This document shows positions 664 through 63,425 of a stretch of DNA of 64,000 nucleotides, piece after piece (the stretch's first letter is position 1; each line of letters opens with the position of its first letter). Below the pieces are notes generated by a model. That model had not been told where the DNA came from. It did no database searches and was given only the letters and a program-made list of their open reading frames with translations. The DNA comes from Bilabrum cf. latius (lineage: Eukaryota), in the NCBI GenBank assembly GCA_965178125.1, contig OZ237772.1, positions 310,001 through 374,000 of the forward strand, given 5' to 3'. A program made the position numbers and the translations under genes.

Positions 664-2407
664 ATGGCTGCACGGATGCGACCGGACTATGACGATGATT
701 TCTTCGGGTCGATGAGTGATGACGATGAAACAAGTGGGAAAGGCGATCTTTGGGGCGCAGATCGCGACAGGCAGGCGGCCACCGCTTCTGCAACCAAGGC
801 AGCGTACAGAGAAGCAGCCGGTAATGCGAAAGAAAATGGAACCCAAGACGGATTTAATCAAGGATTCTCATCGGGTATGCGTATGGGCTTTGCTCGCGGT
901 TTCGTACACCAAGCAGCGGTGTGAGAACAAGACGTGGCATTCGTGCAATCGAAAGAAGCATGCCTAGCGAGTTTGAAGTTTGAACAACGTTTCCTGATGT
1001 TCCAACTTGCGCAGATCTATGGCGCTTGCGTTGCGAGAAAGGCGACACTTGCATCCGTTGGCCATCGGGAGGGCGACCGAGCAGCTGCGGGCGCTCATGC
1101 TCGCCACTGCAACGAAGCACCGGTTGGGCACAGAAAGATACCCAGCAGCGGAACACGCCGTGCAATCTCTCATGAAACGATCAGCCCGACCCCCAATGAA
1201 CCTCATTGCGGAGGAAAGGAGGAAAACTGACGCGAAGAGGGAGGCAGCCGCGCTGGCGGGGGAGCAGGACTTCAGCCGGTGCACCGAGGTCGAGGCGGCC
1301 CGACTGGTTCATGAAGGTTCGCTGAAGCGTCTCCGCCAGGTCGCCGAGATGCACATGGAAGCAGTGGAGGAGATGGAGCGACCCGCTGAATCGGTGGCGG
1401 GTGGCGACGGCGCGGAGGCTGTCACCGGGAGTGGCGCACATGCGGCTGCTGGCGATACTGACTCGGCTGGTGCTGCTGCTGCAGATGGCTAGGCAGTGGG
1501 GGGCGCCAGTGGTGGTGCCGATAGTAGTGTGACGAGTGGAGCGGGGGAGGGTCTGGCAGCTCGGAGGGCGGCGAGACGACGGAAAGGGAGGGGTGGCGGG
1601 GCGGTTGCAACCGACGGTTCCGCTGGCGGCGCCGCCGGGCAGGCTACCCTGTCTCTGGATGGGGGTGCGGCGGCCGAGCCGTCAGACCCGGCACAAAGCA
1701 ACCCGCGTGGAAGTGCCAGTGGCAGTGCAGCAGCAGGTACTGCTGATTCTGATTCTACCGGCAAAGATGGGGATACATCGGTTAGTGCAGATGCAGCAAG
1801 TGCAGCTGAAACGGAATTGGCAGTGCCAGCCTCCAGGGTGGAAGCACTGGTCCAGCGGGTCGGTGCGCGGCGCCGCAACGCTGGACCTGCGGAACCAAGC
1901 GACCCACTCCTCCCTGCCCGGCTCGCCGGACTCCTCGCTTCAATACTGCAGCGGCTAGCGGGCGAATTGGTGGAAGACGGGGGCAAAGAGGATGTGTAGA
2001 AGGAGGTGGGTCTAGGGGAGGCCCGTGGTGGGGCAGGGGCTGGAAGTGGGGCAGGGGTCGGGGAGGGGGCAGGGGCTGATTCTAGCACCGACGTGCGGAG
2101 CGGGCGGCTTGCGCTGGCATCCGTACTTGTGCGAGCAGTTGGCTCGCTCGACATGCAGGGTGCACTGCGCGATAGTGCGAGCGGGGCGGGGGCTGGCGGT
2201 CGAGTGGCAGGGGCTGCTGGTGATGCCGCGTAGTCCAGCGGAGAAGCTGATGCAGAAGAAGAACATGAGTAGGCCAGTGAAGGGAATGCCCCAGTGGACC
2301 GTGCAGTCCCTGTGTTCGGGCTCGGGGACGTGCGGGCGTGGGGGGTGGGGGGTCGCATCGTGGGCGAACAGGGCGCGGGGGACAAAAAAACGCGTGAGGG
2401 GTGGTAA
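664..2407 (+). CDS. Yae1_N (GxxxG repeat) domain protein with long low-complexity tail; join(664..920,1015..2407)
   Basis: QDGFNQGFSSGMRMGFARG is a Yae1/Lto1-type GX3 repeat. The GTGAGA...GCAG intron 921..1014 joins the frames exactly. ORFs 1007-1492, 1496-1999 and 2006-2233 are one frame separated only by TAG, ending at TAA 2405-2407. Confidence 0.6.
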
Positions 2408-2538
2408 ATTTCGCGCTTAACTTCAACCGGCACCATGCGAATAATGTCGAATTGCGGGGCTGCAGCATCCCAGACATGGGTAGATATAAGGTTGGTATCG
2501 AACAACCACTTGTCTATTCACTGCACGAAAGATAAAGC

Positions 2539-3100: not shown

Positions 3101-6100
3101 ATGCAATTTTATGGACTATTACAGATATTAATAGCATGCTTGCTGTCATCTATCGCGTGGGCCAGCTCTGAACCCGTGGAATAGCCGTAGGAGGCGTCGC
3201 AGTTCGTGTTTATTGGATCGAACGGCAACTTGGCACACCGATACGTCTGGCCCGCTCTGTTTCGCATTTGGTCCGTGCAAGGTCCGGAGTATTTCTAGGT
3301 AGTAGCAGTTGTACGGCGTCAAAGGGACGTGGAATCTCTCAAGGAGAAAATATCTTAGAATCACCAGTGCACCGATGACGACAGCGATGCTGGTGATTTC
3401 ATCGCAACAGGGCTACCTGCCGGGTGCAGCAGGCGAGCAGCCCAGTTTGCCTCGGCTGTACGTGTTGTGGTTGCGAGAGACCCCGATGCAGACTATTTCG
3501 ATGTCGCCAACGCGCTCGGGCCACAGGTGGGGGATCTCGAATCGACAGCAAACCACGGCACTCCATCCCCTTTGCCTGTCGGAAACCGGATTTTCTACGT
3601 TGCAACACCACCCTCTGCCTTTGCAAGCGTGGCAGCCGGCCTGCACAAGCACTGTGTGGGACCCGGAGCCGTTCCCGCCTCGATCGCGCGCTCCAGCAAG
3701 CTCGTGCTAGAGAAGCCCATTGGGAGGGATCGGAGCAGCGCAGAGGCCCTTCTGGGAGGGCTCAGGGAACAGTGGGGCGAGGGGAACGTCCTCCTCATGG
3801 ACCACTTCCTCGGGAAGCGAGGCGCACAGATGATACCCGCTGCGAGAGCAGCAGCGGGGGAGGGACTGAGGTCATTTGCCTGGGACTGGATCAACCTCAA
3901 GGCGGTGGACGTTCTGGTGACCGAAACAGATCCGTTGAGCCCAGAGCGGGCGGACACGTACGCTGAGCTCGGCGTCGTACGGGACGTGATGCAGTCGCAC
4001 GCTACCCAGCTGGCGTCCCTGGTTCTCGGTCCGCTCTCGACCGGCTCAGCCGACAAGAGCCGCATTGACCACCCCACCGGTCGCAAGAGCGACTCCAAGG
4101 CGCACCCCACTGACAGTGCAGCAGGCTACCTCAAGCAGTACAAGAAGCCCGCCGGGGTGGTAAGTAGCGTGCGGATTGGAGATGTCGGATCCGCCAGCGT
4201 CCCTTCCGACGCGAGGACGCGCGTCGCTCTCGGGTTCGAACCCGCGCGCGGTGCCGGCAGGCACAAGCGCTCTCTTGTGCTTGGCCGGCACTACGATGCT
4301 GACGAGTGCGACACGCAGGGGGTGTCCTCGTCCTCCTCGGCTGGATCGCGGGCACTGAACGGCACGACGTGCGCCATCAAGGGCGGGGGCAACGGCGATG
4401 ATTCTGGCTCCGAATCCAGCAGGTCACGCACCCCTACGGCCGCCCGCGCGAGCATGATGCTGCACGTGGGTCTGCAGGCGCTCTCCGGCAGCGAAGGTTC
4501 CTCGCAGGGTTCGCTGGTCGTCCCGCCACTCCCCTCCCCGGAGCGTCTGGTGCAGGACCCCATGCTCGTGGGTGTACCCATGGCAGTTGTGGCCGGCAAG
4601 GGCCTGGGAAAGCGGGTGGCAGCCGTCCGCCTGCACACCCAGCACGGCGGCAGGGTCACCTTTGTTGTCCAGGGAACAATGCCGGTGGTGGCACCGGTGC
4701 CCGAGGGGGTGCTCCTGCGGGCGGCCGAATCGGCGCTGAGGGCCGCAGCGGGCCTGGCGAACTCTGACGAACCTTCCCTGGACCAGGTGCTGGAGTCGTG
4801 CTCGCAGGACGCTTTCAGCGGCCTGCCCGCGTGGAGGCCAGAGGGGGTGTACGCGAGCGAGGGAACAAGCGACGGCGATGGCACGGGTGCCGCAGGGGCA
4901 GCGGCGTATCGCGGCACGCTGACGAACGCAGGGCGCGTGCGGTTCGCCTTCGAGGCGTGGGCACTGGAGGTTGCAACCGGTACGCCGGGTCCAGGGAACA
5001 ACGTGACGTACCCCACGGCGGAGGAGGACGTGGCCCGTGCTGCCGCGGAGGCCGTGCGGCACGCAGCCATGAGTGCCCAGCTCGGCGTGGAGCTGGTGGA
5101 GGTACACGGCCCCGCCTTCATCGTGGAGCGGCCAGTCGAGCGGAAGCTGCAGATCCCCAGGCCAGCAGGCGTGCCCTCGGGGATGCGACTGGCGATCGGG
5201 TGGGACGAACCGAACCCGTAGGTGCTCGTCGCAGTGATGGACCCCTCCTCGATCCCAGGGAACAGTCCAGGGAACAGCCCAGGGAACAAGGGGGCGCAGC
5301 TCGAGGGCGCCATCGCCAGGCTAGAGGCAAGCGGCAGCTCCGTGGCCGCATACGCGCGCGTCCTACACGCCGCCCTCACCCCCGACACGGCCGATGACGC
5401 GCAGCTCTTCGCCTCACCACTCGAGGTGCTGGCTGCATGGCGGGCTTGGGACCCAGTGGTGCAGCGAGCGGAGGGGACCGGGCCTTTCGCCAGGGCAGCG
5501 CGGCTGGAGGCCGCTCGCCTTGCACGGCTGTCTTCTGCTGCCGCTGCCGCTGCCGCTGCTGTTCCTCAGGGAACAACCAACGCCACGGATGTGTTCCCTG
5601 GAAGTTCCGGCTCCGAGTCCTCCGTGGTGGACGAGGCCCTGATCGAGGAGCAGCGCGAGGAGGCCGATAGGCTTGCCATGGCGAGGGAGGTGATCGAGGG
5701 GCTGACCCCGCAGCAGAAGAAGAGCTTCGGGGCTGTGGCGGAGGAGGCCGAGGCCGACATGGGAGACTCCCGTGTGACGAGTGGGATCTCGCTCCCGAGC
5801 GCGCACAGCGACGTGGATGCCACGAAGGTGCTTCCTCCGGTACGGCTGTACAGGCCCGGCGAGACCGACTGGTTGGGTCTGGACGGCCCCGCGATGTGGG
5901 TGCGGTGTGACGATAACCAGTGTTCCCTGGATTCGATGGCCGTGGGTGACGCCGCCAAGGCGGGCATGCTGCCCCCCATGGCTCGGGAGGCTGCACTGCA
6001 GCGCCAGGAGCTGCTGAGGCAGGGCAAGCGGCCCCTCAAGGCCTCCTCGGGGCCCTCCACCGTGGACCGGCTGTATGACCTGATGGAGGAGGAGGCCAAG

Positions 6101-6277
6101 GAGATGTGCGTGGGGGTGGATGGAGTTGCACGGCATTGCGGCGCGTGGATGCAGGGAGCCATGGAAGACGCGGCCAGGAAGATGAAGATGAAGAACAACA
6201 AGTCGGAGTTGGAGAAGGAGAAAGTGGGAGGGTCCGGAGGGGGGAGGAGGCAGCGGCCGAGGAGCCAGGCAAGCTGA
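3101..6277 (+). CDS. H6PD: Glucose-6-phosphate dehydrogenase family, ER-luminal H6PD type with signal peptide (~1058 aa)
   Basis: With TAG=sense there is one frame from ATG 3101. It contains signal peptide MQFYGLLQILIACLLSSIAWA, Rossmann motif FVFIGSNGNLAHRYVWPALF, RIFYVATPP, LEKPIGRD, DHFLGK, GVVRDVMQSH and C-terminal AYARVL...EVLAAWRAWDP. In-frame TAGs are at 3182, 3188, 3296, 3356 and 5219; the stop is TGA. Confidence 0.85.
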
Positions 6278-6712: not shown

Positions 6713-9511
<2,799 letters not shown>

Positions 9512-9851: not shown

Positions 9852-11693
9852 ATGTACGGAAGACAAAGACATAGGTCTGGAAGGCGAACCGAGGGGGCCT
9901 CCCAGGGCAGGGGGCAGGCGCCACCTCCGAATTCCAGCGGCACTGCCGCTGCCGTAGCATCAAACCTGCAGCAGCAGGTGCACTTGCTCGAGCTGGAAAT
10001 CCACGCTAGAAGGAAGGAAGCAGCGGAGCAGGAACGCAATCGCAAGGCGGAAGAGGCCATTCTGCACGCGGGGAGAGACACGCAGCCGCCGCCGCTGCCG
10101 CCCCAGTCCTCCCGATTCGCAGCTCGCTCCGCGCTGGGCCGTCACGCAGCGGCCCAGCACGCATCAGGCAGGAAATCAGTGCAGATGCAGTATGAATCGA
10201 GCAGGCCAGGAACCACCCACCGATCTGCCCCGACCACTTCCTCCATTCGAGGCGGTGTCCGCAGCAGCAAGCCGGCAGAAGAAGGGAGCGAACGCCTAGA
10301 GACCGAGCACGGAGCAGGTGCCCGGGGGCAGGCGAGCGCCCGAGCAAGCGGACCAGTCCCCACCGACTACGACCACGCCGGCAGCGGTGCAGCTGCCGCG
10401 GGTGGCTTCGACGGCGGCATGGGTGTGACGAGTGGCCCCGAGGAGGGCCTTGACGACGACGAGCTGCTCCTCGCATTCCGCCGCCGGCTCCGCAGGCAGC
10501 AGGACGCTGCGAGGCGGGCAGAGGCGGAGTCGCAGCGCCGTGAGGCATTCCTCCGGAGGCAATCGGAGGTGCAGGGGGCCGTGGCGGCTCAGCTGCGACA
10601 GGAGCTCAGGCGGCAGGCAGACCTGCACGAGGAGCAGAGGAGGTCCTGGGCGGCTGCAAGGGAGGACGCTGAGCTCCGGGCCAGGCGGGCGGCGGCCGCG
10701 GCATCTCGCGCCACGGACGGCCGCAAGAGGAGCGAGGACCGTGCCAAGGAGGAGGAGCAGGCGCTCCGATCGGATGTTGAGGCATTGCAGGCCCGACTCA
10801 GGGAACAAGTCGCGGCCAGGGCGGCGGCGGACGATGCTGCGGAACAGGCCTCCGGCGCCGCGCAAGAGGCCTCGAGGGCGAGTGCGGCCGCAGAGAGCCG
10901 AGCGGATGACGAGCGGCGCCGCGCATTGGACGCGCGTGCGGAACTAGACCGCGCGCAGCAGGCCGCGCGGGGATACCAGGAGGAGGCAGCCAAGGCCGAG
11001 GGGCGAGCACAGGCTGCAGAGGCCGCGCAGGCAGCGGGGGAGAGAACAATCGCGGAACTTTCCGCGAAATTGCGAGAGGCGGGCGAGCGTGAGTCTAGGC
11101 TTCGCTCTGAGCTATCGGCGGTGCGGGAGCAGCTGCGTGAGGGCGAGGAGCGTTGCGACCAAGCGGGTAGGGAGGTGGTCGCGGCGAGGGAGGAGAGAGA
11201 CGATGCAGTCGGCCGCGCGGCTGATTCCGCAGAGGCTCGGCGGAGCGCGGAGGCTGCTGCAGCGCACTACCAGAGGCAGGAGCAGGAGGCGAGGCACAGG
11301 GCAGCGAACGCGGAGGCTGCTGCGGCGGCCGCTCGCCGGGACGCTGCAGCCGCACGTGCCGCCGCCGAAGATGATGCTAGTCGGCGGGCGGCCGCTGAAG
11401 GGGCAGCGGCGGAGGCGGCGGCAGCCGCAGAGGCGTCGGGAGCGGCGCTCGCAGCGGGGCGGGAGCGGGAGGCCAGGTTGCTGGAGCAGCTGCAGGAGAA
11501 GCAGTCGCAGCTGGGGGCTGTTCTTGGGCGGGGGAGCAACGGCGGGGGTTTTGGTGGAGTGACGAGTGATGGGGTGCCATTGGAAGGGGGTGGCATGGAT
11601 GCGTCCGGGCTGGAGGAAGACGAAGAAGAAGGGCACTCGCAGTAGCATGGGCGAGGCGCGGGCGGGTACCGGGACGAGGGTGGGGAGTACTGA
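9852..11693 (+). CDS. Long coiled-coil protein (Ala/Glu/Arg-rich), function unknown
   Basis: Heptad-like helical composition. ATG at 9852, reads through TAG 11643 to TGA 11691-11693. Confidence 0.7.
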
Positions 11694-11846
11694 GTTGGTG
11701 ACACGCAAATCATGAAGAATCATGCGGATAAGGGTCGCACCGCATCATCGTAGCCGCGCCTGGCACCTTGCACTCGTCATCGCACCAAATCTTGCAGTTG
11801 GCTGCCGGAGATCGAGCTTTCCACTTGTTCAAAAGGTCGTGATAGA

Positions 11847-13777
11847 ATGCGCGCACCAGTGGTAGCATTGATATTATTTGGTCTTACGCTATCCTATGTG
11901 CCAGTCTCATTTAGTGCGATCGTCCGACCTGTGCAACACGATGATGAGAGTGCTGCACAGCAGGGATCCTCGATGCCTCGGGATGAACAGGGCCAAGACA
12001 TTAATGTTTCAGATAAACCACAATTGGTGGCCTCTACAAAGGATACGATTCCATCCTTGAGTAGTCACACCTCAGCTAATGATGACGCAGATGGCGAAGC
12101 ATCTCACACGCAGCCGGAGCCGCAAGAGCATGCCATCCGGGGCAAGCACGAAGCAGGTGGATAGCAGGCTGCTACAGATAGTGTCTAGGTCATGCAAGGC
12201 AATCAAATAGATAGTGGCGCCAATGCCTCTGTCGTGATGAATACGGTTGCATCAGGCGAGCCATCGAGCGGGCAAGAGGTGCCAAGAGCAGGGACGCCCG
12301 CAGTGATGGCCCAATCAGAGCAGGATGCATCCGTGCTCGCACCACTGCCGCCGTGCAGATATGCATCCGCTGCACCAGTCCTTTGGACCGATCTAGGAAT
12401 TGCTTCCGGCGGTGCTGTTCCGCTGTGGGGCGGCGATGGCGACTGCGGGACAGTGCCACAAGACGGAGTAGCAGAGCCACTTGACGCAGACACCGATAGT
12501 CACCAATCCTCCAGTGGCAATGCGCACGCCGAGGCGAATGCTGAGGCAGAGGACCGTACCATCACCACCACCACTGCCACCGCCACCGCCGCCGCCACCG
12601 CCGCCGCCACCGCGACCGCATTCTACAGGTCGGTCCAGACGTGGCTAGATGGAGTCAAGGCGGGACGGAGGGGACCTCCCATTGGTAGCGTGCACTTTGG
12701 ATCCGAACATGACGCGCCTGCCACGGGCCAGATAGACGTGCCCGGCATGCCCCCGGGAGGCTTCGCGGTGTTCCCTGCCAGCTCCCCCTCGTGGCAGGGT
12801 GACCAGCGGGGGGCTGCGCCAGCGAGCGTTGACGCCGGCGCCGCGCCATTGCCGCCGTCGGTTCCGCTGTTGTGGTCGCTCAGGGAACAGATGGCGTTGT
12901 ACCGGAGAGTGTTGGTCGTCAGGGTGAGCTGCCTTGGAGATGCACCCACCGCGCTTCTTGAGGAGGCATTGGCTCCCGATCGGAGCAAGGGCATGCTGGT
13001 GCTGCTGCCCCCCAAGGCGGCATGGAGCGAGGAGACTCGAGGGGGTTGGCGCCGCGCACTGCGGAACTTCGAGGTGTACATGCTGCGTCGCGCCGTTCCC
13101 GTGCCGGTGTTCTTTGCTCTCGAAGAGCCGTCTGGGCAGGCCGCGCGACTGCATCGCGAGGCGTACGACGGTTGGGAGTGCCGTCGCACGGATGGACAAG
13201 GCACTGATGGTAGCGTCTCGTGTGACGAGTGGAGCGCATGCCCGGCGACCCCCCCTGCAGACCTAACGGTGGCTGCTTCAAGCGCGGACCGGGCCGGGCA
13301 TGTCAACGGCGGCGACGATGCGCACTCATCACACGGCAGGGATCCATGGTACCTCCGGTGGCTGCCCGCCAACGACAGAAAGGCCGTCCGTCGCATGCTG
13401 GCCAACATCGGGGACGAGGCGGGGAGCGCGATGTCGCTGCGGATCCAGGGAACATGGAGCACGGGGGGCGTGGCGGGGTCGGCGATGGAGGCATCGGCGG
13501 CGGCGGGTGGGCAGGGCACAGCGGAGGGTGGGGCGCCTGCGGTGGGACCCGGGCAGGTGCACGGCACTGCAGACGACGATGGGCCCAGCGATGGATCCGG
13601 AGTAGATGCCGGGAGCGGAACGTAGGAAGCCGGCGCCGCGCAATCGACCCCGCGCCGGGGCAGGAAGCAGGCAGCCACACCCCCCCTGGCAGCCGTGGCA
13701 GTAGAGGCTAGGGTAGGCGCGGACATGTCCAGGAAAGGCGCGCTGGCGAGGAGGCTGACCCTCCTGGCACAGCAGGT

Positions 13778-13816
<39 letters not shown>

Positions 13817-44610: not shown

Positions 44611-45510
44611 TTGCCTACTGCCAGGCGCCGTGCTGTTCTGCACTGCACTGCCGAACTGCCTCCCCTGTCTGAACCTCCCCGCCGCCGCAGCGTCGCCTGC
44701 CTGCACCATGGGGGCACTCCCATGGGAAGGCACCATCGGTCTGCCGCCGCTCCAGAGGGCATGGCCGAGGAGACCACCCCCACCCCCACCAGTGGTACCG
44801 GTTGAACCCCCGGGTCGCCCCTTGGGAAAGTCGTGCAGGGGATGCCTGGCGGGATCTAGTGTGGGGAAATCGTCACCGGCGCCGTTGCCTGCTGCACCCG
44901 AGGAGGTGCTCGTGCTCGCCCCCTCCCCTGGCACTGCTGCTCCTGACCGCGGCAACCGACGCTCCGTCGCCGGGCCAAAGCTCCCGCCAAAGAATTGCGC
45001 GAGCACCTGCTCCATCCGACTTGCTCCCGCGTCTTCTGCTCCAAGCGCAGGCAGCTCTGGAGGGGAGGTTGATTCTTGCGCGTCTCCCTTCCGAAGGATG
45101 ACTGTCCCAAGCTACTTCTGCGAGCTTGCAACACAAGGAAATTAAATTCGCGTAAGTAATCCTAGCATGAAGCAGGTAGATAGGGAGACGGATGTCAACA
45201 TTAAGTACAACTGGCGTGGCCCCGTGGCAACGATATTCTGATCAGACAGTCACTCTCACAGGTGGTCTTCCGCTGCACTACTCGAGGACGTGCACAGATT
45301 TCATAGAAGTAGATTTTCCGTTGACCCAAGAATACTCCGAGCTTTGCATGGTTGAATGCCCACAGCCTTCCTGAACCTGGCTCTTCAGCTTGCTAACTTC
45401 TTCCAAAAACTTGTCATCGCTTCCGACAATGATCTATGCCTAACGCGAACTCGATCTACTATCTTTCATCCTATTTGCTGTGCACACCGATAATGCAGCA
45501 AATAGCAATT
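44608..45510 (-). CDS. Hypothetical protein, exon structure and start unresolved
   Basis: Frames ..LLFAALSVCTANRMKDSRSSSR*A*IIVGSDDKFLEEVSKLK.. and ..K*LGTVILRKG..MEQVLAQFFGG.. are open apart from TAG. The stop is TGA 44608. No recognisable domain. Confidence 0.35.
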
Positions 45511-50907: not shown

Positions 50908-52086
50908 ATGCATGCATCATCTGTATCTAGAAGCACTTTTAGCCGGTTCAGTGCTATGATGGGGGGCATGTTCAGACCAAGAAAGCCCCACGTCGCCGTG
51001 TTGCGGCTCCAAGGGACCATTCGTGCTGGGGCCCGGGGCCAGCAAGGAATTTCTGCAGACCAGACACTCAATATGCTTCACCGTGCCTTTAAGGTTGGCG
51101 GGGGTGGAAGGCGAACGCCTGCCGGCGCGGGAAAGCTGAAGGCTGTGGCTATCGAGATTAACTCTGGCGGCGGCTCTGCTGTGCAGAGCGCAATCATTCA
51201 GCGAGCGATGAAGCGGCTGAGCACGCATCACGACGTACCTATCTATGTTTTTGTGGAAGATGTAGCTGCATCTGGAGGCTATCTGATCGCATGCGGTGCC
51301 GAGGAGATCATTGTCGATCCTAGTTCTGTAGTAGGCAACGTGGGGGTGATTCGTCCCAGCGTCGGCATCCACAAGCTGCTCGACAAGTGGGGCATCGAGA
51401 ATCAAACTCGCACGATGGGAGCACGCAAGGAGATTGGCGCTATCACTCGCCCGGAGACGCCGCAGGAGCAGCAGCGCCTGGACAGCATGCTCCGTCAATT
51501 GCACGTCGAATTCAAGGACATCGTCAAAGAAGCTAGGGGCAAGAAAATCGAAGACTCGCCTCTGCTCCGAGCATTCAGGGCTATTGGCGATGGCAATGAC
51601 AGCCGAGATTCCGTAGATGCGGCAGCTCTTGAGGCCGTTCTCGCCGAACCGAGCAAGGCGGGTCTGTCTGCAGAGGAGGCCGCCGGGCTCCGCTGGGCGA
51701 CCGAAATGACGCACTCGCCCATCGAGGTGGACCACGTGCTTGAGGGTGACGTGTTCGTGGGGCGGCAGGCGGTTAGTTCCGGCTTTGCGGACGGCGTGGG
51801 GCACTTGCGACCAGTAATGCTGGAGAAGCTAGGAGTGGCCAAGGAGGAAGACGCGAGGTTCGTGAAGGTTCCTGCGTGGGGCGGGTGGTTGGGGGGCGGC
51901 TGGGCCGGGGTGGAGGGGGGCGTCTCGTCACAGCTGGGTGGCGGCGGCTGCGTGCTGGGCAGTGTGACGAGTGCGATTGCCGGGATTGGAGAGAGCGTCG
52001 GCAGAGGGGCGGTGGATGCAGCGCTGGCCGCAGCGGAGGAGGAAGAGGCTGCACGGGCGGGCTATGGGGGTAGGCACAGGCTGTGA
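50908..52086 (+). CDS. sppA: Peptidase S49 (SppA-like signal peptide peptidase), probable organellar targeting peptide
   Basis: VAVLRLQGTI, AVAIEINSGGGSAVQS, EDVAASGGYLIACGAEEI, SVVGNVGVI and GDVFVGRQA..GFADG. The N-terminus is Ser/Arg-rich and the stop is TGA. Confidence 0.9.
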   Translation: MHASSVSRSTFSRFSAMMGGMFRPRKPHVAVLRLQGTIRAGARGQQGISADQTLNMLHRAFKVGGGGRRTPAGAGKLKAVAIEINSGGGSAVQSAIIQRAMKRLSTHHDVPIYVFVEDVAASGGYLIACGAEEIIVDPSSVVGNVGVIRPSVGIHKLLDKWGIENQTRTMGARKEIGAITRPETPQEQQRLDSMLRQLHVEFKDIVKEARGKKIEDSPLLRAFRAIGDGNDSRDSVDAAALEAVLAEPSKAGLSAEEAAGLRWATEMTHSPIEVDHVLEGDVFVGRQAVSSGFADGVGHLRPVMLEKLGVAKEEDARFVKVPAWGGWLGGGWAGVEGGVSSQLGGGGCVLGSVTSAIAGIGESVGRGAVDAALAAAEEEEAARAGYGGRHRL

Positions 52087-52433: not shown

Positions 52434-55400
52434 ATGAGAAGTTTTGGGATTTACATGCTGCTATTTTCATGTGCAGCCCTTTGTGATTGCACGATGGATC
52501 GGTCTATCCTAGCAAGCCATCCGAACAGTCACCTACTAATTGGGAGCGAGCTGGCAGATGCACCGGGATATGTTGCAGCGAATGGTAAGGCAGCCATTGA
52601 GGCAGAACTATAAGCTTTGGCATGATGCCAAAACGCTGCATTCAGTTCCAGGTCAGGCTTCCAAGTTCACACCGCAGGATCATGGTACGAGGTTCCTGCA
52701 CCCTCTGCGCTATGCCCGGGGTGCCAGGAGCAGAAATCGCGGCAAATGCGGATTCGCGTTGCGTAGTAGGCAAAATTTCTGGTGCGCAATCCGGACGTTT
52801 CACCGCTCGTTGATCTGCCGTGGGCTGACGCACGTCGAAGCAGAGCGTTCGGCACGCCGAGCCGATGGCTCACCGGGCCACGCATCGGCACACACGAGGA
52901 CCAGTCCAGTGATGGATGCAAGCGTATAGAGTCCATATCGAGCTCCGAGTTTCGCCCCGCCTCTGCCTCGTTTCAGATGGGCCCAATCAAACCAGAGGTA
53001 CGCACATACCAATCTGCTTGGCCTGCCATTGCACCGCCCGTGGCGTCTGCAGAACCGTACACGGTAGAGCACTGGGGCCTGATCATGCAACCGCGAGCAG
53101 AGGGTGTTGGATTCTTTAGCAACCAGATGAAGGCCTGGTCCCGCACGGACAATGGCGTGGCAGCGGGCAAGCGGACCACGTTTTCCGCGGTTGGTACTCC
53201 TGGGTACTTGTGGCCAGTACACAGCTCTCAGATGTCCGTGATTTACCGGTCTGGATCGGTGCAAGAAAGGATTTGTGTCAAGATGTCGACGCTCACCTGC
53301 CCCCGCCGCACGTTTGACCCGGACTGCACCCCCATGGACGAGCCCATCCCCCTCAACGACACGTGCAGGCAGACGGTGCTGTGGCCCAAGACATTCGGCC
53401 GTGGTAGTGACACTATGCAGAGCCTTCCAAATAGAAGTACAAATGGGTCATGTCCTCCCATGTATACCTACACGTGGGACCCCCAAGACAGCCGCCAGCT
53501 ACACCACGGGAGCGCGGCATCTGACCCCCTCGGGTATCCGCAGGGAATCATGACTTGCTCGGCGAGGACAGGAACTAGCGGAGGCGGTATACGACCGGGG
53601 ATTTCTGCTCGTGCGCGATCAGCGGTCTGGAGCTAGATCGTTACCACCGTTTGGCCCCCCGGCACCGTTGCCGTGCTGCCTGTCGGCCCGAATGCAACCG
53701 CTTCAGGTGATGCAGCTAACTACCCCTGGAGGGTTAACAGAGGACACGTGGTCACTGTGGTCAGCAATATCCCCGCAGCAAGCATTTTCAACTCTATTTC
53801 TGACGCGGGGGCAAGCCCAGGCGCGCCCCTAGGAGTGTCGCCGACTGCAGCTAGTTTACATCATTTGACAAGATCCTATGCACCAATGCAGTGCGGGAGG
53901 GCATATACCAGCGTAAGGCGAGCCATTGATGCCCAGCTCGTGTTCCTAGATGACGCCTCCTGCATTGCCTCCAGGTCATGCAGGCCAGACGTGGGATCCT
54001 CCACCAACGCCAGCAGCCCACAGTACAGGCAGGCCGTGGACGAGTACGTGGCATCGGACATCGCTCAGCTGTTTCCCGCGGGCATGGTGGGGTGTGCATT
54101 GTCATACGATCTGAACCGAGAAGATTACAACTCTGACTTGGTGCCAGTGGACATGCCGATCGCACAGAATGGGGCCGGGTTTGTACTTGGCAGCACCGTG
54201 CCTGCCTACTTGATCGAATCAACCTACCATCCTGCAACCCACGGTCGGTGGCAAAATAATTCCCTCGTAGATATACGATCCTGGCGCAGTGCTTCAATCG
54301 CAACGGGGGCATCAACTGATGCGGCTAGTAACGCTTCTATTCGCGATAGTGTCGCCACTCGCGGTGTGGCAAGCATGAGTGTTGGGAGTGGCGTGCCGGA
54401 GTCCGCAACCCCAATCATGAGCACTGGGCTGATCCACGGCCCATACGCCGTGTATCGAGGACCCGTCCCGCACCGTATGCTGCCCCCTTCGCCCAATGTA
54501 TCCTTGCCTCCAGTCAACGGAGGACGGTGGGCATGCGCCCGCACTGCCCCGCAAGGGTACTTCCAGGAGCGCCCCTACTGCCTGGCTATGTGCGATGATC
54601 CCAGCCACATCGCGGTGGATGTGGGTCTCGAGCGGGATGCGGGGCTGGCTGCGGCTGGCATTGGGGCAGGGGCGGTGGGTGCATCACGAGATGGGTGGGC
54701 TCTGGTGGCGAGCCAGGCGCGTCACTGGTACTCGTACTGGCTTGGGTATCCTGGTCTGATGCAGGACGAGAGGCTGTACGGGAACGATCGGCTGGCGCAG
54801 GTGCCTGCTCTTGGGTCTGTGCATCCGGTGGTGAATGGATTGTCTAGCCCTGTGTATCGAAATCTCACTGCGCCAGACGGCAGCTCAATAGGATTGCCGA
54901 GTCCGCAGATGGCATGCATGCCTGACGACGACGATGTGTGGCACCGGTCGTGGTCTCGATCGTCTCGATGGGCACAGCGCTTACCTGTAGGCAGGGGCTA
55001 CGTTGAATTCAACCTGAGCTTCGATGCGGCTGCGTGGCCGGCCGCTGTGCCTCTCCACGATGGCGCACAGGCTCCAGGTCTGAACTGGCCAATTCCGTCG
55101 ACTGTGTAGTTGCAATGGCTCGAAGCAGACGTAGCGATGGATCTAAGCGATTGTGCTAGGAACACCGATGGGTGGGCCGTTCATGTTTCCGCGGTGCACG
55201 TCAAGCCAGCGATGCCGGCTCCCGCAAACTCATCGAGATGCGAGCCAGGACCCAGGAGCAAGGGCTGGTGCCAGATATTGCCGATGACACTCGTTGTGGT
55301 CGCCTCGCCTGTCGTGTTTCCAAACGACACGCAGCATGGCGCGAGCGCGCCATCCTGGGCCAGTCATGAACCTGTCCACCAGACTATGTCTAATTCCGCT

Positions 55401-57575
55401 CCCATGCAACGGATCCTGACCGCAGGCAGCGTGCTGCAGCGAGTGGTGAGGAGGATCAGGGGAGGACCAGATGCTGGGCTGGCCGGCGTGTGGATGCTGG
55501 CCGCAGAACCTGAATCAGTGCATATTACCGTGCAGTTGCCCTGCATTCCGCTCGCCCGTGACCTGGCAGGCTCTGCGTGTGGGTCGGTAGATGGGGCTAT
55601 TTTTCTTCATTTTTTCGATGTTGGTTTGAACCGCGCTGTGGTAGTCTGCTGTACCGTCGCGGTCGCATTGCTGCTGTTTCTATGGTTTCGGTCTGCATGG
55701 CTCGATCATCCAATAAGTGTTGGGTTAATCCGGTTTGTGTTGGGGGCGCTATCGCAAGTGACAGCCTGGATCGCTGGGCTGGGCCTCTTGTAGGTTGAGC
55801 TGTTCGTGCCTGCCGCTGTGCTGCTGGCTTGGCTGACATTCGGGCTCCTTGCTAGGCTAGTAGGAGTACTCGTTAGGGGCGCGGCGGAGCGTGGTGCTTT
55901 GGATGCTAATACAGGACGACTTTCAACCGGGTGCAAGCGTGTAGCTTACGACAGTCCGATGCGGCCCGGCTTAAGGTCACCACAAGCAGGCGTGAATGAG
56001 TCTGATGGTGGTGACTCCGCTCGGCAAGCCTTCAATGGAGTCGAAGCATGCCGTCATTCCAATAATTCAGATTCGAGTATAAGACCAGCTACCACTGCAC
56101 TGCATGCGACCAAGTATTCTTCTGACCTTGGTGGTATCGTAATAGAAGCAGGAGAGGAGCTTGAGGTGGGACACAGCGAAAACGATGATGGTGATGATGA
56201 CACGGGTGAGCTAGCGCGGCGGGGTGACAGCAATGGCATGATGCATGGATCGGTTGCCACCTCAAGAGTAGCTGGTCGGGGGCGCGCCATCCATGGTCCT
56301 TCCGCGGACAGGTCGCAGCTACTACACATGGGAGCCTCGGCACGATCCACACCGGCATAGAGACACATGCGCGAAACGGGGGCAATGGCACGGCAGGTCT
56401 ACGGCGGTGTCCCGGTGCAGCTTGTGCTATCTGACATTCCCAGTGAAACCGAAGACGAGGAAGAGGAAGAGGACGTCAGTGAGGACACTGCAGGGAGTTG
56501 CGACCAGCATGCATTAGAGCAGGCTCAGCATCCAAGTCAACTTGTTGGCGCGACCTCGGATGATTATGCAAATGACTAGGTCTGCCCTCCTAGCAGTAGC
56601 AATCAAGATGTTTCTCTCGGGGCCAGTTTTACGTCTCTCCCGTGCCCCTCCTCTTCCGTCTCCCGCATGGTCGAGCTACGGGACCAAGGCAGCAGGGCCC
56701 CAAGTGGAGACTAGTACGTCCTCGCCAGGAACGTGAGGCCAGAGGGCCACAATGCGCCCGCACAATGGCATGCCCGCACACGGCCTGTTGCAACTGAGGT
56801 GGACGGCCCCGTGCTTCTGCCAGTGGTCGACGATTGTGAAATAGGTTACGGTGGCTACTACCCCCAGCTCTCACCGGTTTGCTAGCACATGGCCGTTGCT
56901 GCCTCGGTGCTATACTGGGGGGCAGGGCAGGACATAGAGACGGCGATGGAAGAGTTGTCAAGGGAGCGACTAGCTGCAGTAGCTGCAGTAGGAATCGGTC
57001 GTTCTGGAGCATCCATGCCTTAGCTTGTCCCGTTCCTACCGTCTGCGGGAGGGCTAGGGAATGGTATGGATGAATCACAGGCCCTGCAGTGGAACGGTCT
57101 CGCTGTGCCAGGCCAGCCGATTCATGCAAGCACGAAACCGGCGGTCGAAGGGAATTCACGGTAGGTATAGGCACCGGTGCCAAAGCCCCATAGGTCCTCT
57201 GGTTCCTCTGGGTGGAACGTGCGCGCAAGAAGACCCAACTCAGGACAAGGGCAGCTGTCTAGCTCCGATTCAGAACGCGTGCGCATGCCATTGGAACAAG
57301 GTCCCGCCATCTACACCTGCCGATGCCCCAGTACCAACATGTGCGCGGCGGATGTGCTTGCGATGCTCGCGATCGTCATGTGGGCCGTTCTTTGTTCCCT
57401 GGGCCAGTGCCCCGTGGGTGCCTGCATGCGTGACCCGGGCGGCGACCTCGCCGCAATGCCACAGGTGCTGCTGTTGTGGGATCGTGCGGCGGTGGTCGGG
57501 GTGGCGATAGCGTCTTGGGGGCTGGGCCATGTGGCTCGCGCCGTCGTTTGTACTGGATGTACCGAGCCTTCCTAA
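52434..57575 (+). CDS. Unrecognised large multi-pass membrane protein family, copy 3 (~1682 aa); join(52434..52584,52678..57575)
   Basis: Signal peptide MRSFGIYMLLFSCAALC, GTAAGG..GCAG intron 52585..52677, one frame with ~12 TAGs and a TAA stop. Confidence 0.8.
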
Positions 57576-57750
57576 CTAGCGTTTAGTTAAACGCACATTG
57601 GGTATAGCGTAAGGGCTGCAAACTGTCCAGTTGCAACTTGCTCAATCCTTTTGTGACGTGCGCTTCCGGTATGCCGGAGTCTAGCGCCGACACGTCGCGG
57701 CAGGGAGTTCGACCGAGGTTTGGTTGCAATTTGGAAGTAGCAACACCACT

Positions 57751-60700
57751 ATGTATGCTAGTGTCATTATATTATGCATCATTTGTTTTGCTGAGGTAGT
57801 CCTAGTCAGCTCGCACAAGCCGGTAACATTAGGGATGGCTCGATCAATGCCGCAAACTACCAAGTTTTGGTCTGACGCGCCCGGAGAAGCTACAAATGGC
57901 AGGAATCGCTGTAACTGTGAGAAGCGGTTAAACAAATGGTCGTGTATGTAAGTATTCATGCTCAGCAGTTCATCTGTGCTCTGTCACTGATGGCTTTCCT
58001 TGCAGCAACCTGGCTGCTTCAAGATGACCTGTCGGCGCTTGGGATCGCTCCCAATCACGCGAACCGAACCCGTAGGATATTGCAATACAATGATACGAAA
58101 TTAATGAAGTAGAGGTCAAGCTGTTTGCTGGTGGATCACCCATGGCGTGGTATACCAGACTCTCGGGTCCTGCAAGGCTGGCTGCCATTGTATTGGACGG
58201 CCAGTCCAAGACGATCGCCCAATCGCACAGAAGTTGCATCCCATAAACTTTCCTTTGCTGCAATGCCAACCGTGTCTGCGGCGTCATCGCCCTAGCGACC
58301 TATCGTATCTGCAAGATAGATCACGCAATGGCCGAGCATCGCTCCGCCGGTACGCGCGGCTGAGCCGTACACAATAGAGCACTGGGAGCTGTCAACCATG
58401 CCACGGGTGCAAGGATTATCATTACTTACCAACCAGATGCGACTGTGGTCTAGGAGCAACACAGGCACTCCTCCTGGCAGACCTGCCACTCTAGAGGAGG
58501 TTGGAGCTGCTGGTGTCACCGGCTATGTGCAGGCCTCCTCTCAATTGATGATATTGAGGAGGGGGGGCGCAACAATGAACGGGATATGTGCCTCGGTCTC
58601 GATCGTGGACTGCCCCCGCCGCACGTTTGACCTGGACTGCACCCCCATGGACGAGCCCATCCCCCTCAACGACACGTGCAGGCAGACGGTGCTGTGGCCC
58701 AAGACGTTCGGACGTGGTAGCAGTAGTACGCAGAGCCTTCCAAATAGAAGTACAAATGGGTCATGTCCCGCCCCAATCGTGCCTTTTGAAGGCAACATGG
58801 ACGGGTACACTGCATTGCCGCCTGGAAGCAGGGGGGACCCCCGAGGCTGGGTGCATTCCACTGCAACGTGTTCCCCCAGGACCATGGATGGGAGCACGCG
58901 CAACGGCCTCTCTGCAGTCGCAAGAACGGTCGTGTGGACGCAGTCAGTCACGACAATCTGGCCCCCTGGCACCGTTGCCGTGCTGCCCGTGGGCCCGAAT
59001 GCAACCGCTTCAGGGGATGTAGCTGACTACCCGTGGAGGGTAAATAGAGGACACGTTGTGATGACAGTCACGAATGTTCCATCCACTGCAATGTCTCCGA
59101 ACGAGACGATCTCATCGCAATACGGACCACCAAGCTAGTAGAATGGTAGGAGCTCCAGTCACTGGAGGCACAACGGAACTGCCAGCACGCCTGTGCTTGA
59201 TGATGTTGGCAAGCATAACGTGGATGTTGGCAAGCATAACGTGGATGTTGGCAAGCATAACGTGGATGTTGGCAAGCATAACGTGGATGTTGGCAAGCAT
59301 AACGTGGATGTTGGCAAGCATAACGTGGATGTTGGCAAGCATAACGTGGACCAGCGGACGGTATCGTATGCTGCCATGGCTTGCGGGCTGCCTATTTATT
59401 TCGTGCCAGCTGCACCAGATGCCCAGCTCGTGTTCCTTGATGACGCCTCCTGCATCGCCTCCAGGTCATGCAGGCCAGACGTGGGATCCTCCACCAATGC
59501 CAGCAGCCCACAGTACAGGAAGGCCGTGGATGACTACGTGACATCGGACATCGCTCAGCTGTTCCCAACGAGCATGGTAGGGTGCGCGTTATCATACGAT
59601 CTCGATCGGGATGATTACAACTCTGACTTGCTTCCGGTAGACATGCCGATCGCACAGAACGGGGCCGGTTTTTCCTTTGGCTCCGTGATGCACAGCTACT
59701 TGCCAAGCGATGGGTACCCATACACACCCGCAACTAAAGGCAGATGGATGCTTAATGCCACTTCAGGAACTACAATGGGCTTGCCTGGTCTCAAGAATGA
59801 GCCTGTAGTTCGAATTAGCAACCATAGGTCAACGAAGTCAATGGGGTCCTCGCAGACATATGTGCAACCATTGTTGCCTAAAGCCATGATCCACGGCCCA
59901 TATGCCGTGTACCGAGGACCCGTCCCGCACCGCATGCTGCCCCCATCGCCCAATGCCACCCTGCCTCCCATCAGCAGAGGACGGTGGGCATGCGCCCGCA
60001 CTGCCCCGCAAGGGTACTTCCAGGAGCGCCCCTACTGTCTGGCTATGTGCGACGACCCCAGCCACATCGCGGTGGATGTGGGCCTCGAGCGGGATGCGGG
60101 GCTGGCTGTGGCTGGTGTCGGGGCAGGGATGAAGGGTGCATCTCGAGATGGGTGGGCTCTGGTGGCGAGCCAGGCGCGTCACTGGTACTCGTACTGGCTT
60201 GGGTATCCTGGTCTGATGCAGGACGAGAGGCTGTACGGGAACGATCGGCTGGCGCAGGTGCCTGCTCTTGGGTCTGTGCATCCGGTGGTGAATGGATTGT
60301 CTAGCCCTGTGTATCGAAATCTCACTGCGCCGGACGGCAGCTCGATTGGATTGCCTAGTCCGCAGATGGCATGCATGCCTGACGACGACGATGTGTGGCA
60401 CCGGTCGTGGTCTCGATCGTCTCGATGGGCACAGCGCTTACCTGTGAGCAGGGGCTACGTTGAATTCAACCTGAGCTTTGATGCGGCTGCGTGGCCAGCT
60501 GCCGTGCCGCTAAGCACCCGGGGGGCAGCACCAGGTCTCAACTGGCCTGTCCCAACAGAGGCCCAGCTGGAGTGGCTAGAGGATGACATAGAAATGGATG
60601 TGGCTGACATGGTGACGGCAGAGGGTCGGGCGCCTGGCGCTTCTTGCGCTGCTAAGATTATCTAGGTCAAGACGGGAGCATCTATTCCCGCCACTGCGGG

Positions 60701-63425
60701 TTGCTCACCAGTGGACAAAGAAGAGGGTTTTTGTTAGTCGCTGCCCACAAGTGTATCCGTCCGACTGTCGTGTGACCCCCCTCCCTCGGTAGCTCAGACG
60801 CTCATGTTGCCACGTACGAGGCAGAGGGCCCTGACCGCAGGCAGCGTGCTGCAGCGAGTGGCGAGGAGGATCAGCGGAGGACCAGATGCCGGGCTGGCCG
60901 GAGTGTGGATGCTGGCCGCAGATCCTGAGTCCGTCCGGGTGTGCATCGAGCTGCCAAGGCTTGCAACGATACAGCGTGGGAACGGCGGCTTGTCAAGTGC
61001 ATTGCAGTGTGGTGCAGACCTTACGAGCTCTTAGCTCGTTGGTGCGTCTTTTCGATTGATCTCAGCGGTTGCCGTGTGTGCCATTCTGGCTATCCTGTTC
61101 GTCGGAATGATGGTCCTTTTATGCTGGTGCGATGATGGTGGTCGCAACTATCTGTCCGTTAGCCAGCCTGCGGTACTGTTGTGCATTCAATTAGTTTGGT
61201 GGTGTGCTGTGATTGCATTGGGCGAAGCTGGGCTGTATCGGCCTGCGGTAGCACTTGGAATCATGCTTGGTTTGACTGCAGTGGGCCGAGCAACCGCCGT
61301 GGTGTGCTTCGTGTATCCATTCTGTCCCTCGTGCAGCCAAAGCCAATGGCGAACGAGACAGCACTCAGCAGAAGATAGTAGTGTTGAGCTGTATCATATC
61401 AAGGAGGAGGACGACGAAGACTCAAGCGTGTTTGGCACCACGGATTTCAACTAGGACTGGCAATCACGGATGCGTGAGGCCAATCGATTGGGTGACGAGG
61501 CAGCACATGGCACGCTTCGCAAAAAAGCACTGGTACCTGTACCGCGAAGTGTCGTTGGCATCCCTTCTCCTCCAAGTGTTGCAGCACGCTATGACAAGCA
61601 AGCTGGCACTATGAACAGAATAGCCTTAGACTAGCAGCGGCCCTGCCTCTAGAGCTCGGGCCACAGCGACAATGGCACGATGAACAGAATAGCCTTAGAC
61701 TAGCAGCGGCCCTGCCTCTAGAGCTCGGGCCACAGCGACAACTGCCTCGACCTGCAACCGGGAAGACACGATAGCAATGATATATAGGAAGAGCATCAGC
61801 GACCCAGAGTCCTCAGTATGGACGAAGTCGGTTCATTGCGGCGCGGGCAGCTGGGTGCGCATGCAGTGCAGCCTCCCCCCTTACGGTCCATCGGTGGGAT
61901 GCGAGGACACGCTCTTATGGGTACTCGGCACCTGTCGAAGATGCTAACCATCCACAGTGATGAGACCTCCACCACTGATATAAGAACGGAATCAGGTGCT
62001 GGTACTGGGACCGACACAATCCCTGCACGGCCCATTGAGCAAGCGCGGCGTCACTCGAGACCAACAGATGCCCACAGAGAGCACGAGGCGAGCATGGAAA
62101 ACCATCCCGTAGTGATCGGATCCAGTGCTGACACGTCCAGCTAGTTCGAAACAGATGCAGCAGATGGGCGCATGGATTGGCCGCACGGTCCACGTCAGAC
62201 GATGCAGCCCAGTGCAGCTCACGAATCGTATCCATCGACCCGCTAGGAATCGCACCTGCATCTGGGACTGTAGTCGTCGTCACAGTCCAACTCCCGGGTG
62301 TCCCTGCCAACAAGGGGTGCTTCTGCTGGAGGCCCGCACTCAGTGCAAGGGGGCGACCTAGGGGCAAGCAGGGAATATCGGTCTAGGGGAGCCTCTTCTC
62401 CTACGGGGGTGCATGAGCTGACCGCGGAATCCAGTGTGGATTCAAACGCGGTCAATGAGCTTGCTTTGCGAGCGGACAACGATGCCCAGCCGAGGCCCGA
62501 GAGGCAATCAATTGCGGCCTTGTACGACCAGAGTTCAGCTCAGTACGGGGATGAAGATGCGAAGGGACGAACATGCACTCTCTTTGAAGCCCCTCATCTA
62601 GCTTGCCTTTCGTGCCAGTGTTGCGTGAGAGATGCACGGGATGCGTCTTGCACTCGAGATGCACCATACCTCTGCAGGCTGCTTCCGTGCCGCAATGCAG
62701 TGCAGCAGTCCTGGAGACTCCCTTGGCTCCCTCAAGTGGCACCATCCGCCCCTTACCCCCGCGCTGTCCACGGACTAGGGGCGGTGCTTGCTGTGCTGCA
62801 GTGGGATGCACTCGAGGGAACGATGTATGCGTATACCGCGTGGTAGCATGATGCCATGGGAGCGATGGATACTGCCCGGCATCACGAGTTGAGAAGTGCG
62901 CTGCTGGCAGCAGAAGTTGGCAACCGCAAGACTACGCTGGTGGGATCAGAGTTTGGCAACCGCAAGACCGCCTCTTTACCTTCTTCCGCTGCTCCATCGA
63001 GGAGCCCATCGGTCCTGTCTATAGAACCTACGGATCCACGTGGCATACACTTGGCATCCCGGTACCAGATCAACCGGCCCACGACGGCATGGGCCGACAC
63101 GAAGAAAAGCATGGATGTGTCACCCAACGCACCCAGCGCCGTGGACCAATCGAGCACAAAGGAGGGTCAAGGCAGTCGGTCTGCTGGGCCAGGGAACAGG
63201 GTAGGTCTGCTGTTCCGTCTGTTCGACGCAACGGCTGTGCTCGCGATCGTCACGTGGGCCGTTCTTTGTTCCCTGGGCCAGTGCCCCGTGGGTGCCTGCA
63301 TGCGTGACCCCGGCAGCGACCTCGCCCAGCTGCCCCCAGTGCTGCTGTTGTGGGATCGCGCGGCGGTGGCGGGGGTGGCGGTGGTGGCAAGTCTAGTTGG
63401 GAGTGTGGCTGTCCTGTACAGCTAA
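57751..63425 (+). CDS. Unrecognised large multi-pass membrane protein family, copy 4 (~1861 aa); join(57751..57916,58006..63425)
   Basis: Signal peptide MYASVIILCIICFAEVVLVSS, GTGAGA..GCAG intron 57917..58005, one frame with ~18 TAGs and a TAA stop. Confidence 0.8.
59202..59348 (+). repeat. 21-bp coding minisatellite x7 (DVGKHNV)
   Basis: GATGTTGGCAAGCATAACGTG is repeated 7 times in copy 4 only. Confidence 0.95.
61611..61741 (+). repeat. 69-bp-period tandem duplication (in frame, 23 codons)
   Basis: ATGAACAGAATAGCCTTAGACTAGCAGCGG...CACAGCGACAA at 61611 and 61680. Confidence 0.9.

Follow-up and report, generated by a model that had tools for sequence, protein, structure and literature searches.

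Joint reassignment of UAA and UAG to glutamine (NCBI translation table 6) is known from Tetrahymena, hexamitids, ulvophytes and oxymonads. A rare code separates the two codons, with UAG read as glutamine and UAA and UGA kept as stops. This code has been described in the fornicate Iotanema spirale (PMC5304391) and in the ciliates Hartmannula sinica and Trochilia petrani, with Protocruzia tuzeti cited as a further case (PMC11687900). Decoupling also occurs with other amino acids. The ciliate PL0344 uses UAA for lysine and UAG for glutamate (PMC10553269), the rhizarian exLh and the TARA phyllopharyngeans read UAG as leucine, and Scotinosphaera reads it as serine. Here, we analysed 64,000 nucleotides of nuclear DNA from Bilabrum cf. 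latius (contig OZ237772.1, G000:C38:310001-374000; hereafter the window) together with the assembly that contains it (48.6 Mb in 111 contigs). We conclude, with a probability of about 0.92, that UAG is a third glutamine codon in this genome (~12% of glutamine codons) and that UGA (~80%) and UAA (~20%) are the sole terminators. The same division into a sense UAG and two terminators had been proposed for the window in an earlier note, and it extends across the genome. The note's reading of the code is supported, with the qualification that the decoupling itself was already known (PMC5304391, PMC11687900).

The code table is shared with I. spirale, where UAG likewise occupies conserved glutamine positions, never terminates and coincides with an altered eRF1 N domain (PMC5304391). 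Iotanema belongs to another supergroup, which points to an independent origin, and its main stop is UAA (104 UAA, 15 UGA; PMC5304391) rather than UGA. We surveyed a non-random sample of 854 kb (400 kb around dynein genes, the window and 390 kb elsewhere), in which 112 of 139 frames of at least 400 codons end in TGA and 27 in TAA, and 130 hold TAG. UAG makes up 11.7% of the glutamine codons in these frames. Its share falls from 17% in genes with low GC content at third codon positions (GC3) to 6% in high-GC3 genes, in parallel to CAA, and TAG behaves as a minor synonymous codon. Hartmannula and Trochilia carry UAG in 78-84% of genes and at 18-32% of glutamine codons; both are AT-rich and end 87-92% of genes in UAA, unlike the UGA-dominated genome studied here (PMC11687900). 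Compared with table 6, UAG is shared as a glutamine codon, whereas UAA is a stop and a tRNA(UUA) was not found. In the literature searched, which misses most subscription papers, we found no UAG-to-glutamine case in stramenopiles or bicosoecids and none with UGA as main stop (~80%), and the code has probably not yet been in print for stramenopiles.

Finding no in-frame TAA is circular where frames are defined by TAA, and the code was tested on genes in which homology marks the ends. We fetched 17 of 18 dynein heavy-chain loci, four of which run off their block at the 5' end and one of which has an intron. Their 86,213 codons include 345 TAG, 524 CAA and 3,213 CAG and not a single TAA or TGA, although ~56 TAA would be expected were TAA used like TAG. 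The earlier claim that no TAA interrupts a gene survives this less circular comparison. All 17 genes end a few residues past the C-terminal motif, 15 in TGA, two in TAA and none in TAG. Scored against 129 reference dyneins at 70% conservation, TAG coincides with glutamine in 16 columns of 21, and at 90% in 6 of 7; the corresponding figures at 70% are 24 of 29 for CAA and 233 of 287 for CAG. The log-likelihood summed over 137 TAG columns is +96.5 for glutamine, with glutamate next at -50.3.

Within the window, reading through TAG yields 16 non-overlapping ATG-started frames of at least 250 codons, 12 ending in TGA and four in TAA. TAG is present in 15 of the 16 (109 TAG, 170 CAA and 551 CAG in 16,791 codons). 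Reading through TAA, TGA or both produced no gene-length frames beyond those obtained from TAG alone. The ten stop positions previously named are all correct (TGA at 6277, 9511, 16043, 36683, 44353 and 52086; TAA at 2407, 39550, 57575 and 63425). The window genes, with their in-frame TAG and stops, are:

1019 to 2407, forward strand: unnamed protein gene; four TAG, stop TAA.
3101 to 6277, forward strand: G6PD-domain gene; five TAG, some within the Pfam G6PD_N match, stop TGA.
6713 to 9511, forward strand: VLRF1-domain gene; four TAG, stop TGA.
9852 to 11693, forward strand: coiled-coil-like protein gene; one TAG, stop TGA.
11712 to 16043, forward strand: unnamed gene of 1443 codons; eight TAG, stop TGA.
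16331 to 18409, reverse strand: RCC1-repeat-like gene; two TAG, stop TGA.
18594 to 25040, reverse strand: paralogue A of a four-gene family; 22 TAG, with TAG opposite glutamine of other copies, stop TGA.
25875 to 30749, reverse strand: paralogue B; eight TAG, stop TGA.
31212 to 34035, reverse strand: BBS2 gene; at least one TAG, probable stop TGA at 31214-31212.
34530 to 36683, forward strand: unnamed gene; six TAG, stop TGA.
36890 to 39550, forward strand: EEP-like gene; six TAG (36944, 38198, 38306, 38426, 38855, 39365), stop TAA.
40926 to 41912, forward strand: EF-hand-like gene; one TAG, stop TGA.
42328 to 44353, forward strand: RPB3-like RNA polymerase subunit gene; four GT-AG introns from RNA joints, four TAG, stop TGA.
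44608 to 45469, reverse strand: spliced, transcribed gene of 239 codons; four TAG, stop TGA.
46642 to 50436, forward strand: unnamed gene of 1264 codons; 11 TAG, stop TGA.
50908 to 52086, forward strand: peptidase S49 gene; no TAG, stop TGA.
52746 to 57575, forward strand: paralogue C; 12 TAG, TAA in place of the TGA that A and B have at this C-terminus.
57936 to 63425, forward strand: paralogue D; 18 TAG, TAA at the C-terminus shared with A to C.

Paralogues A to D stop at a common C-terminal motif, two by TGA and two by TAA, and TAG stands opposite glutamine in both columns where the remaining three copies agree. Each gene of this family (18594-30749 and 52746-63425) has 1600-2150 codons and encodes a conserved Cys-rich core together with membrane-like segments. 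The family has no Pfam match, and the one member also compared with NCBIfam had no match there, leaving the family unnamed. In the RPB3-like gene, TAA is confined to introns; this gene and the spliced gene at 45469-44608 both combine their four TAG with an open frame free of TAA. Two earlier assignments need correction. The TGA at 31653-31651 is probably not the end of BBS2, whose frame shifts in a G-rich stretch near 31850, ahead of the C-terminal part, by an intron or an assembly indel. The EEP label for 36890-39550 came from motifs only, and searches of Pfam, NCBIfam and PDB gave no EEP match; an RNA contig ending 135 bases downstream supports the TAA at 39550 as the end of this gene. The gene at 3101-6277 joins a G6PD-like N-terminal part to ~700 residues without known family and has a signal-peptide-like start. 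The gene at 6713-9511 is one we take to be Vms1/ANKZF1-like.

The alternative that survives best, though improbable, is that UAG is ambiguous. It would be glutamine inside genes and a stop near 3' ends, as in Condylostoma or Blastocrithidia, or a leaky stop at which eRF1 loses to the tRNA. The existence of just one tRNA(CUA) gene and the retention of T32, E55, Y125 and the NIKS core in eRF1 would suit such a code, as would a slight, non-significant deficit of TAG in the last ten codons. The tests of 3' ends used 156 frames of at least 300 codons, excluding the virophage block described below. TAG occurs 26 times in the last 30 codons against 25.1 expected, and 57 times in the last 60 against 49.3. 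Behind the last TAG, tails of 10-80 codons have coding scores below zero in 13 of 49 cases, compared with 16 of 56 after CAA; runs after true stops do so in 21 of 23 cases for TAA and 85 of 93 for TGA. Non-coding tails are not overrepresented behind the last TAG, and TAG ends none of the 17 dyneins, none of the four window paralogues and not eRF1. At a termination rate above roughly 1% per codon, genes carrying as many as 53 TAG would not be finished. In Condylostoma, karyorelicts and Blastocrithidia, the dual codon both terminates genes and becomes scarce ahead of the real end, a pattern not seen here. Frequent genuine termination at TAG, which the earlier note had named as a finding that would refute its proposal, was not seen at the 17 dynein ends or in the tail and density tests. 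Frequent or context-dependent UAG termination is not supported, and UAG might account for a few percent of ends at most.

A single eRF1 gene was found (G000:C35, L001:1068-2941), two further search matches being read as pelota. The model has four exons and 438 residues, with two in-frame TAG and a TAA right after the conserved C-terminal DFI. The first TAG (Q44 column) stands opposite glutamine in 82 of 85 homologues; the second lies at human L69, a position with leucine in 81 homologues and glutamine in four. One of these two N-domain UAG codons closes exon 2. Across 90 conserved columns, the N domain differs at 21, compared with nine in Cafeteria and a median of one and maximum of 23 among the 85 homologues. 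The M domain departs at 9 of 97 columns and the C domain at 12 of 66 (Cafeteria 7 and 11). In human numbering, anchored on PDB 1dt9 from residue 48 on, G29A, N30D, I35V, E107Q, F117P and K130H occur in none of the 85 homologues, and S60V (1), N129S (2), L69Q (4) and T99E (4) are rare. G31, T32, S33, E55, R65, S70, V71, Y125, C127 and F131 are intact. The earlier note had pointed to the GTS, TASNIKS and YxCxxxF motifs of domain 1, and substitutions were indeed found around them. Its claim that eRF1 rejects UAG fares well as to the unusual N-domain substitutions, while the rejection as such would be a reading of the protein sequence. N129 and L69 have been tied to third-position G, and S33 and S70 to UGA (PMC4381064); the yeast equivalent of N129S was enriched in a screen for better stop suppression (PMC12440015). 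The pattern fits a putative loss of UAG recognition with retention of UGA and UAA. In Iotanema, the eRF1 change is T32G (PMC5304391), whereas T32 is intact here and other sites are changed. Since the UAG codons lie in the stop-recognition domain of eRF1 itself, a feedback loop is possible if any UAG recognition remains.

A tRNA with a CUA anticodon, which had been predicted, exists as one high-scoring gene. It is a single copy at G000:C23:907607-907679 on the minus strand (69.8 bits, clean cloverleaf), among TAG-bearing host genes. Neither the 48 Rfam matches nor two pattern searches, with 8 and 14 hits, contained a tRNA(UUA); 63 of the 780 candidates were scored. Of the pattern hits for Gln-type tRNAs, ten proved not to be tRNAs, among them one on C14 with a TTA triplet. 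The acceptor and anticodon stems of tRNA(CUA) match tRNA-Tyr(GUA) at 20 of 24 positions, Gln(CUG) at 12 and Gln(UUG) at six, and 289 pairs of tRNAs for different amino acids match at 16 of 24 at most. C1-G72 occurs only in tRNA(CUA) and tRNA-Tyr among 29 distinct tRNAs. The D stem matches Gln(UUG) at 8 of 8 positions and Tyr at 3 of 8, and the discriminator is G73, as in Gln(UUG), where Tyr has A73. Eukaryotic tyrosine determinants are A73, C1-G72, G34 and U35; G73 and U35 are among the bacterial glutamine determinants, and the available text lists none for eukaryotic glutamine (PMC9976931). We suggest that tRNA(CUA) may be a tRNA-Tyr amber suppressor that changed its identity, a descent to which we give close to an even chance. 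Paired positions are not independent, the stem comparison was chosen after seeing the data, and whole-molecule identity places tRNA(CUA) about equally near Tyr, Glu and Gln tRNAs (48-50 matches), all of which weaken this descent. The main rival parent would be host tRNA-Trp(CCA), for which a pattern search gave six hits; none of the five fetched is a tRNA, and the sixth has the same matched letters as one of these five. The earlier name tRNA-Gln(CUA) is right that a CUA tRNA gene is present and would fit its presumed charge, but not its ancestry, two stems being Tyr-like. Several E. coli amber suppressors turn into glutamine inserters, one on a change of A73 to G73 (PMC9976931). Engineered E. 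coli suppressors are mischarged with glutamine, and a tyrosine descent would be the natural version. The Iotanema tRNA is a prediction, namely a mutated tRNA-Gln(CUG) (PMC5304391), and no suppressor tRNA was detected in the Hartmannula and Trochilia assemblies (PMC11687900), whereas the gene is found here and lies nearer Tyr than Gln(CUG). Among the decoupled codes with another amino acid (exLh, TARA phyllopharyngeans, Scotinosphaera and PL0344), those with known tRNAs differ in that the suppressor descends from a tRNA of the amino acid carried. A tRNA(CUA) gene for this code, here one with Tyr-like stems, was not found in the literature searched.

These Tyr-like stems and the retained C1-G72 are what favours the view that UAG encodes another residue (tyrosine through a tyrosine-type suppressor, glutamate, leucine or pyrrolysine) or a mixture with some tyrosine; ARAGORN also labels the tRNA as Pyl, from the anticodon alone. 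We regard this as very improbable. The dynein likelihood puts glutamine far above the rest and tyrosine near the bottom (-286), TAG occupies 0 of 455 conserved tyrosine positions, 1 of 528 glutamate and 0 of 446 lysine, and tRNA(CUA) lacks A73 and G34, two of the four eukaryotic tyrosine determinants (PMC9976931).

Whether UAA is also, if rarely, glutamine bears on the possibility of an ordinary UAR code masked by high GC. High host GC3 would keep TAA rare, which makes AT-rich DNA in the same genome informative. G000:C12:301000-337000 (L212-L215) is an AT-rich integrated virophage with a GC3 of 0.29 and Pfam matches to major and minor capsid proteins, an rve integrase and a helicase (PF21915/PF22031, PF21507, PF00665 and PF19263). 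By gene content, it may be classed as an endogenous mavirus-like virophage of EMALE type. Its 13 long frames contain 96 TAG and no TAA. In the seven Pfam-named virophage frames (2,799 codons), 47 TAG and no TAA were counted, where ~115 TAA would be expected. A genome-wide capsid search gave 36 matches, among which 16 full copies of 89-100% identity carry 12-14 TAG each and no internal TAA. Five distant copies lack TAG altogether, and the four of these that were checked all end in TAA. Among host genes, a hand count over 95 kinesin matches gave ~60 TAG, eight TGA (six unchecked) and one TAA, and 74 integrase matches gave one TAA. These two TAA could favour a UAR code; the kinesin one sits in an intron, and the integrase one lies in a single damaged copy, at a non-glutamine position. 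In-frame TAA at conserved glutamines, the other finding that the earlier note had named as fatal, was not seen in dynein, kinesin or integrase matches. TAA and TGA are also interchangeable at homologous C-termini, and the read-out employed is able to register in-frame TAA. Among 80 metagenome eRF1 loci, four carry in-frame TAG in the matched part (L104, L146 and two ciliate-like loci), and the two ciliate-like ones carry in-frame TAA too. Together with the complete absence of TAA from the dyneins, this effectively refutes a UAR code.

The virophages showed further features. The commonest type is present in eight copies with an identical capsid protein and 14 in-frame TAG per capsid gene; a second type has 4-6 and a third, distant type none. 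A GC-rich insert (~322500-330000) interrupts the C12 element and resembles the Ngaro retrotransposons of Cafeteria, by resemblance only. Near-identical tRNA-Met(CAU) genes lie in AT-rich DNA (L025, L035, L039, L046, L047 and L048; for instance at G000:C5:282086, C7:1154419, C3:1133102, C9:698618 and C25:323122). Five of them are ~2.5-3 kb from rve integrase matches, and L039 adds a tRNA-Pro of the same build; a virophage- or polinton-like element may carry them. No close free relative turned up when viral contigs were scanned three times with virophage proteins, which gave one contig with a 29% helicase match. AT-rich endogenous virophages with in-frame TAG but not TAA were not found in the literature searched.

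TAG is present unedited in RNA contigs. Runs X1-X3 were taken as RNA from their spliced joints, no run being recorded as such, and uncovered parts count as no evidence. They splice the four introns of the RPB3-like gene and one of the minus-strand gene, and these joints are absent from DNA run X7. One X1 contig (36802-39685) carries all six TAG of the gene at 36890-39550 with no differing letter, and at least 11 of 32 in-frame TAG in genes modelled over 20 kb lie within the listed RNA pieces, all unchanged. An environmental relative (L104, eRF1 at 92% identity) has TAG at an orthologous glutamine, and TGA where the present genome has TAA. An artefact from pseudogenes, assembly errors or RNA editing can be dismissed, given that DNA and RNA runs are identical over TAG sites, that TAG prefers glutamine columns and that the environmental relative shares TAG, with nothing beyond the one BBS2 frame change to recommend it.

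Several points weigh against UAG as a dedicated glutamine codon. At 50% conservation, TAG stands on glutamine in just 21 of 41 dynein columns (CAA 36 of 57). The five TAG in the last ten codons, against 8.4 expected (P=0.15), might reflect a weak 3' depletion. The eRF1 exon model comes from GT-AG ends and homology rather than from reads. N129S, L69Q and T99E are found also in homologue P0007, and N30A was without effect in yeast (PMC4381064); no single eRF1 substitution is thereby shown to be causal. C1-G72, which counts among the eukaryotic tyrosine determinants (PMC9976931), is retained in tRNA(CUA), whose acceptor stem differs from both resident Gln tRNAs. The tRNA search, limited to the scored candidates, yielded no host tRNA for Trp, Leu, His or Asp, and a UUA tRNA of unusual build might exist. 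Finally, the insertion of glutamine and the absence of occasional UAG termination are deduced from nucleotide data. For published members of this code as well, glutamine in protein and eRF1 blindness to UAG are undemonstrated (PMC11687900).

Cafeteria proteins are annotated at full length, under an assumed standard code. By its sequences, the source of the window is a Cafeteria-related bicosoecid stramenopile, a single-celled flagellate. The best named match is Cafeteria roenbergensis, at 69% for eRF1 and 65% for one dynein heavy chain. A dynein tree (36 rows, one gene, quick search) places the organism as sister to Cafeteria plus the environmental sequence P0121 (SH-aLRT 99; stramenopile clade 100), and the eRF1 tree agrees with weaker support. 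A cox1 search brought up relatives at 94% and 89%, which did not point to a genus. The assembly is a near-complete genome accompanied by RNA data, ~60% GC and intron-poor. Cafeteria burkhardae has 34-36 Mb and 70% GC (PMC8547959), and Halocafeteria seosinensis 39 Mb and 47% GC (10.64898/2026.07.28.741278), both thus differing from the present genome. Many AT-rich integrated virophages are shared with C. burkhardae, C. roenbergensis and H. seosinensis. The words "genetic code" are absent from the available portions of the texts on Cafeteria and Halocafeteria (PMC8547959 and 10.64898/2026.07.28.741278). The mitochondrial contig (G000:C111, L049-L052; 38.4 kb, 24% GC, all genes on one strand) has frames that open only with TGA read through as Trp and a tRNA(UCA), that is, mitochondrial code 4, and its long gene-like frames terminate in TAA. 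Mitochondrial UGA=Trp or tRNA(UCA) has been reported for the bicosoecids Cafileria and Cafeteria (PMC6723347). Contig G000:C95 (L053, L223; 17.9 kb, telomere-like repeats) holds a second 18S gene, 83% identical to the main ribosomal DNA array on C12, and probably belongs to another, co-cultured eukaryote in the assembly.

A Cafeteria-side eRF1 from a metagenome (L146:1-1310, source of P0019) has two TAG, both opposite glutamine of its relative L140, and ends in TGA. Its N domain is heavily changed (N61Q, S70A, L126W). L146 groups with L140 and P0007, and a single clade of the present organism with L146 was rejected (p-AU 0.0006). This one transcript is a possible lead to a second UAG recoding. 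The absence of TAG from one gene of L140 or P0007 does not imply a standard code, so there may have been a wider ancestral recoding. Taken jointly, the UAG reader would have arisen from tRNA-Tyr(GUA) via G34C, followed by G73 and a Gln-type D stem, recoding would have occurred again in L146, and virophages and their helper would live with the code. We place this joint scenario a little below an even chance. The codon would then have passed from stop, possibly through tyrosine, to glutamine.

For the glutamine code itself, we suggest the following mechanism, in which tRNA charging and eRF1 specificity are read from gene sequences. The single tRNA(CUA) would read UAG, and UAA stays free because C34 cannot pair with its A. 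Glutaminyl-tRNA synthetase, located only as one of two PF03950 matches in the genome, would charge tRNA(CUA) by means of U35, discriminator G73 and the Gln-type D stem. The single eRF1 may have become largely insensitive to third-position G by way of G29A, N30D, I35V, S60V, L69Q, E107Q, F117P, N129S and K130H. It would keep S33, S70, T32, E55, Y125, C127 and F131, which fits UGA as main stop. With two in-frame UAG in eRF1, the full-length factor is made only with UAG read-through, which locks in the code.

The independent origin described here appears to be the first in stramenopiles, and every further origin of this kind probes the reasons why the two codons UAA and UAG tend to be reassigned jointly. 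UGA is the main stop in this GC-rich genome, so that a locking of UAA by its use at nearly all gene ends cannot explain the decoupling here. Judging from its substitutions, the eRF1 is a natural candidate for a factor blind to UAG only, a property wanted in eukaryotes for expanding the genetic code at amber codons. Under standard annotation, more than 90% of long genes in the lineage would be broken, which would conceal the lineage in metagenomes. Virophages as a family depend on a giant virus (PMC8547959), and the use of the host's code by these virophages points to a giant virus able to cope with UAG as glutamine. All isolated giant viruses have standard-code hosts (PMC13524828). A recoded, virophage-rich flagellate is a plausible host class for giant viruses that read TAG as glutamine and, if the joint scenario is true, Cafeteria-side flagellates would be candidate hosts for such viruses.

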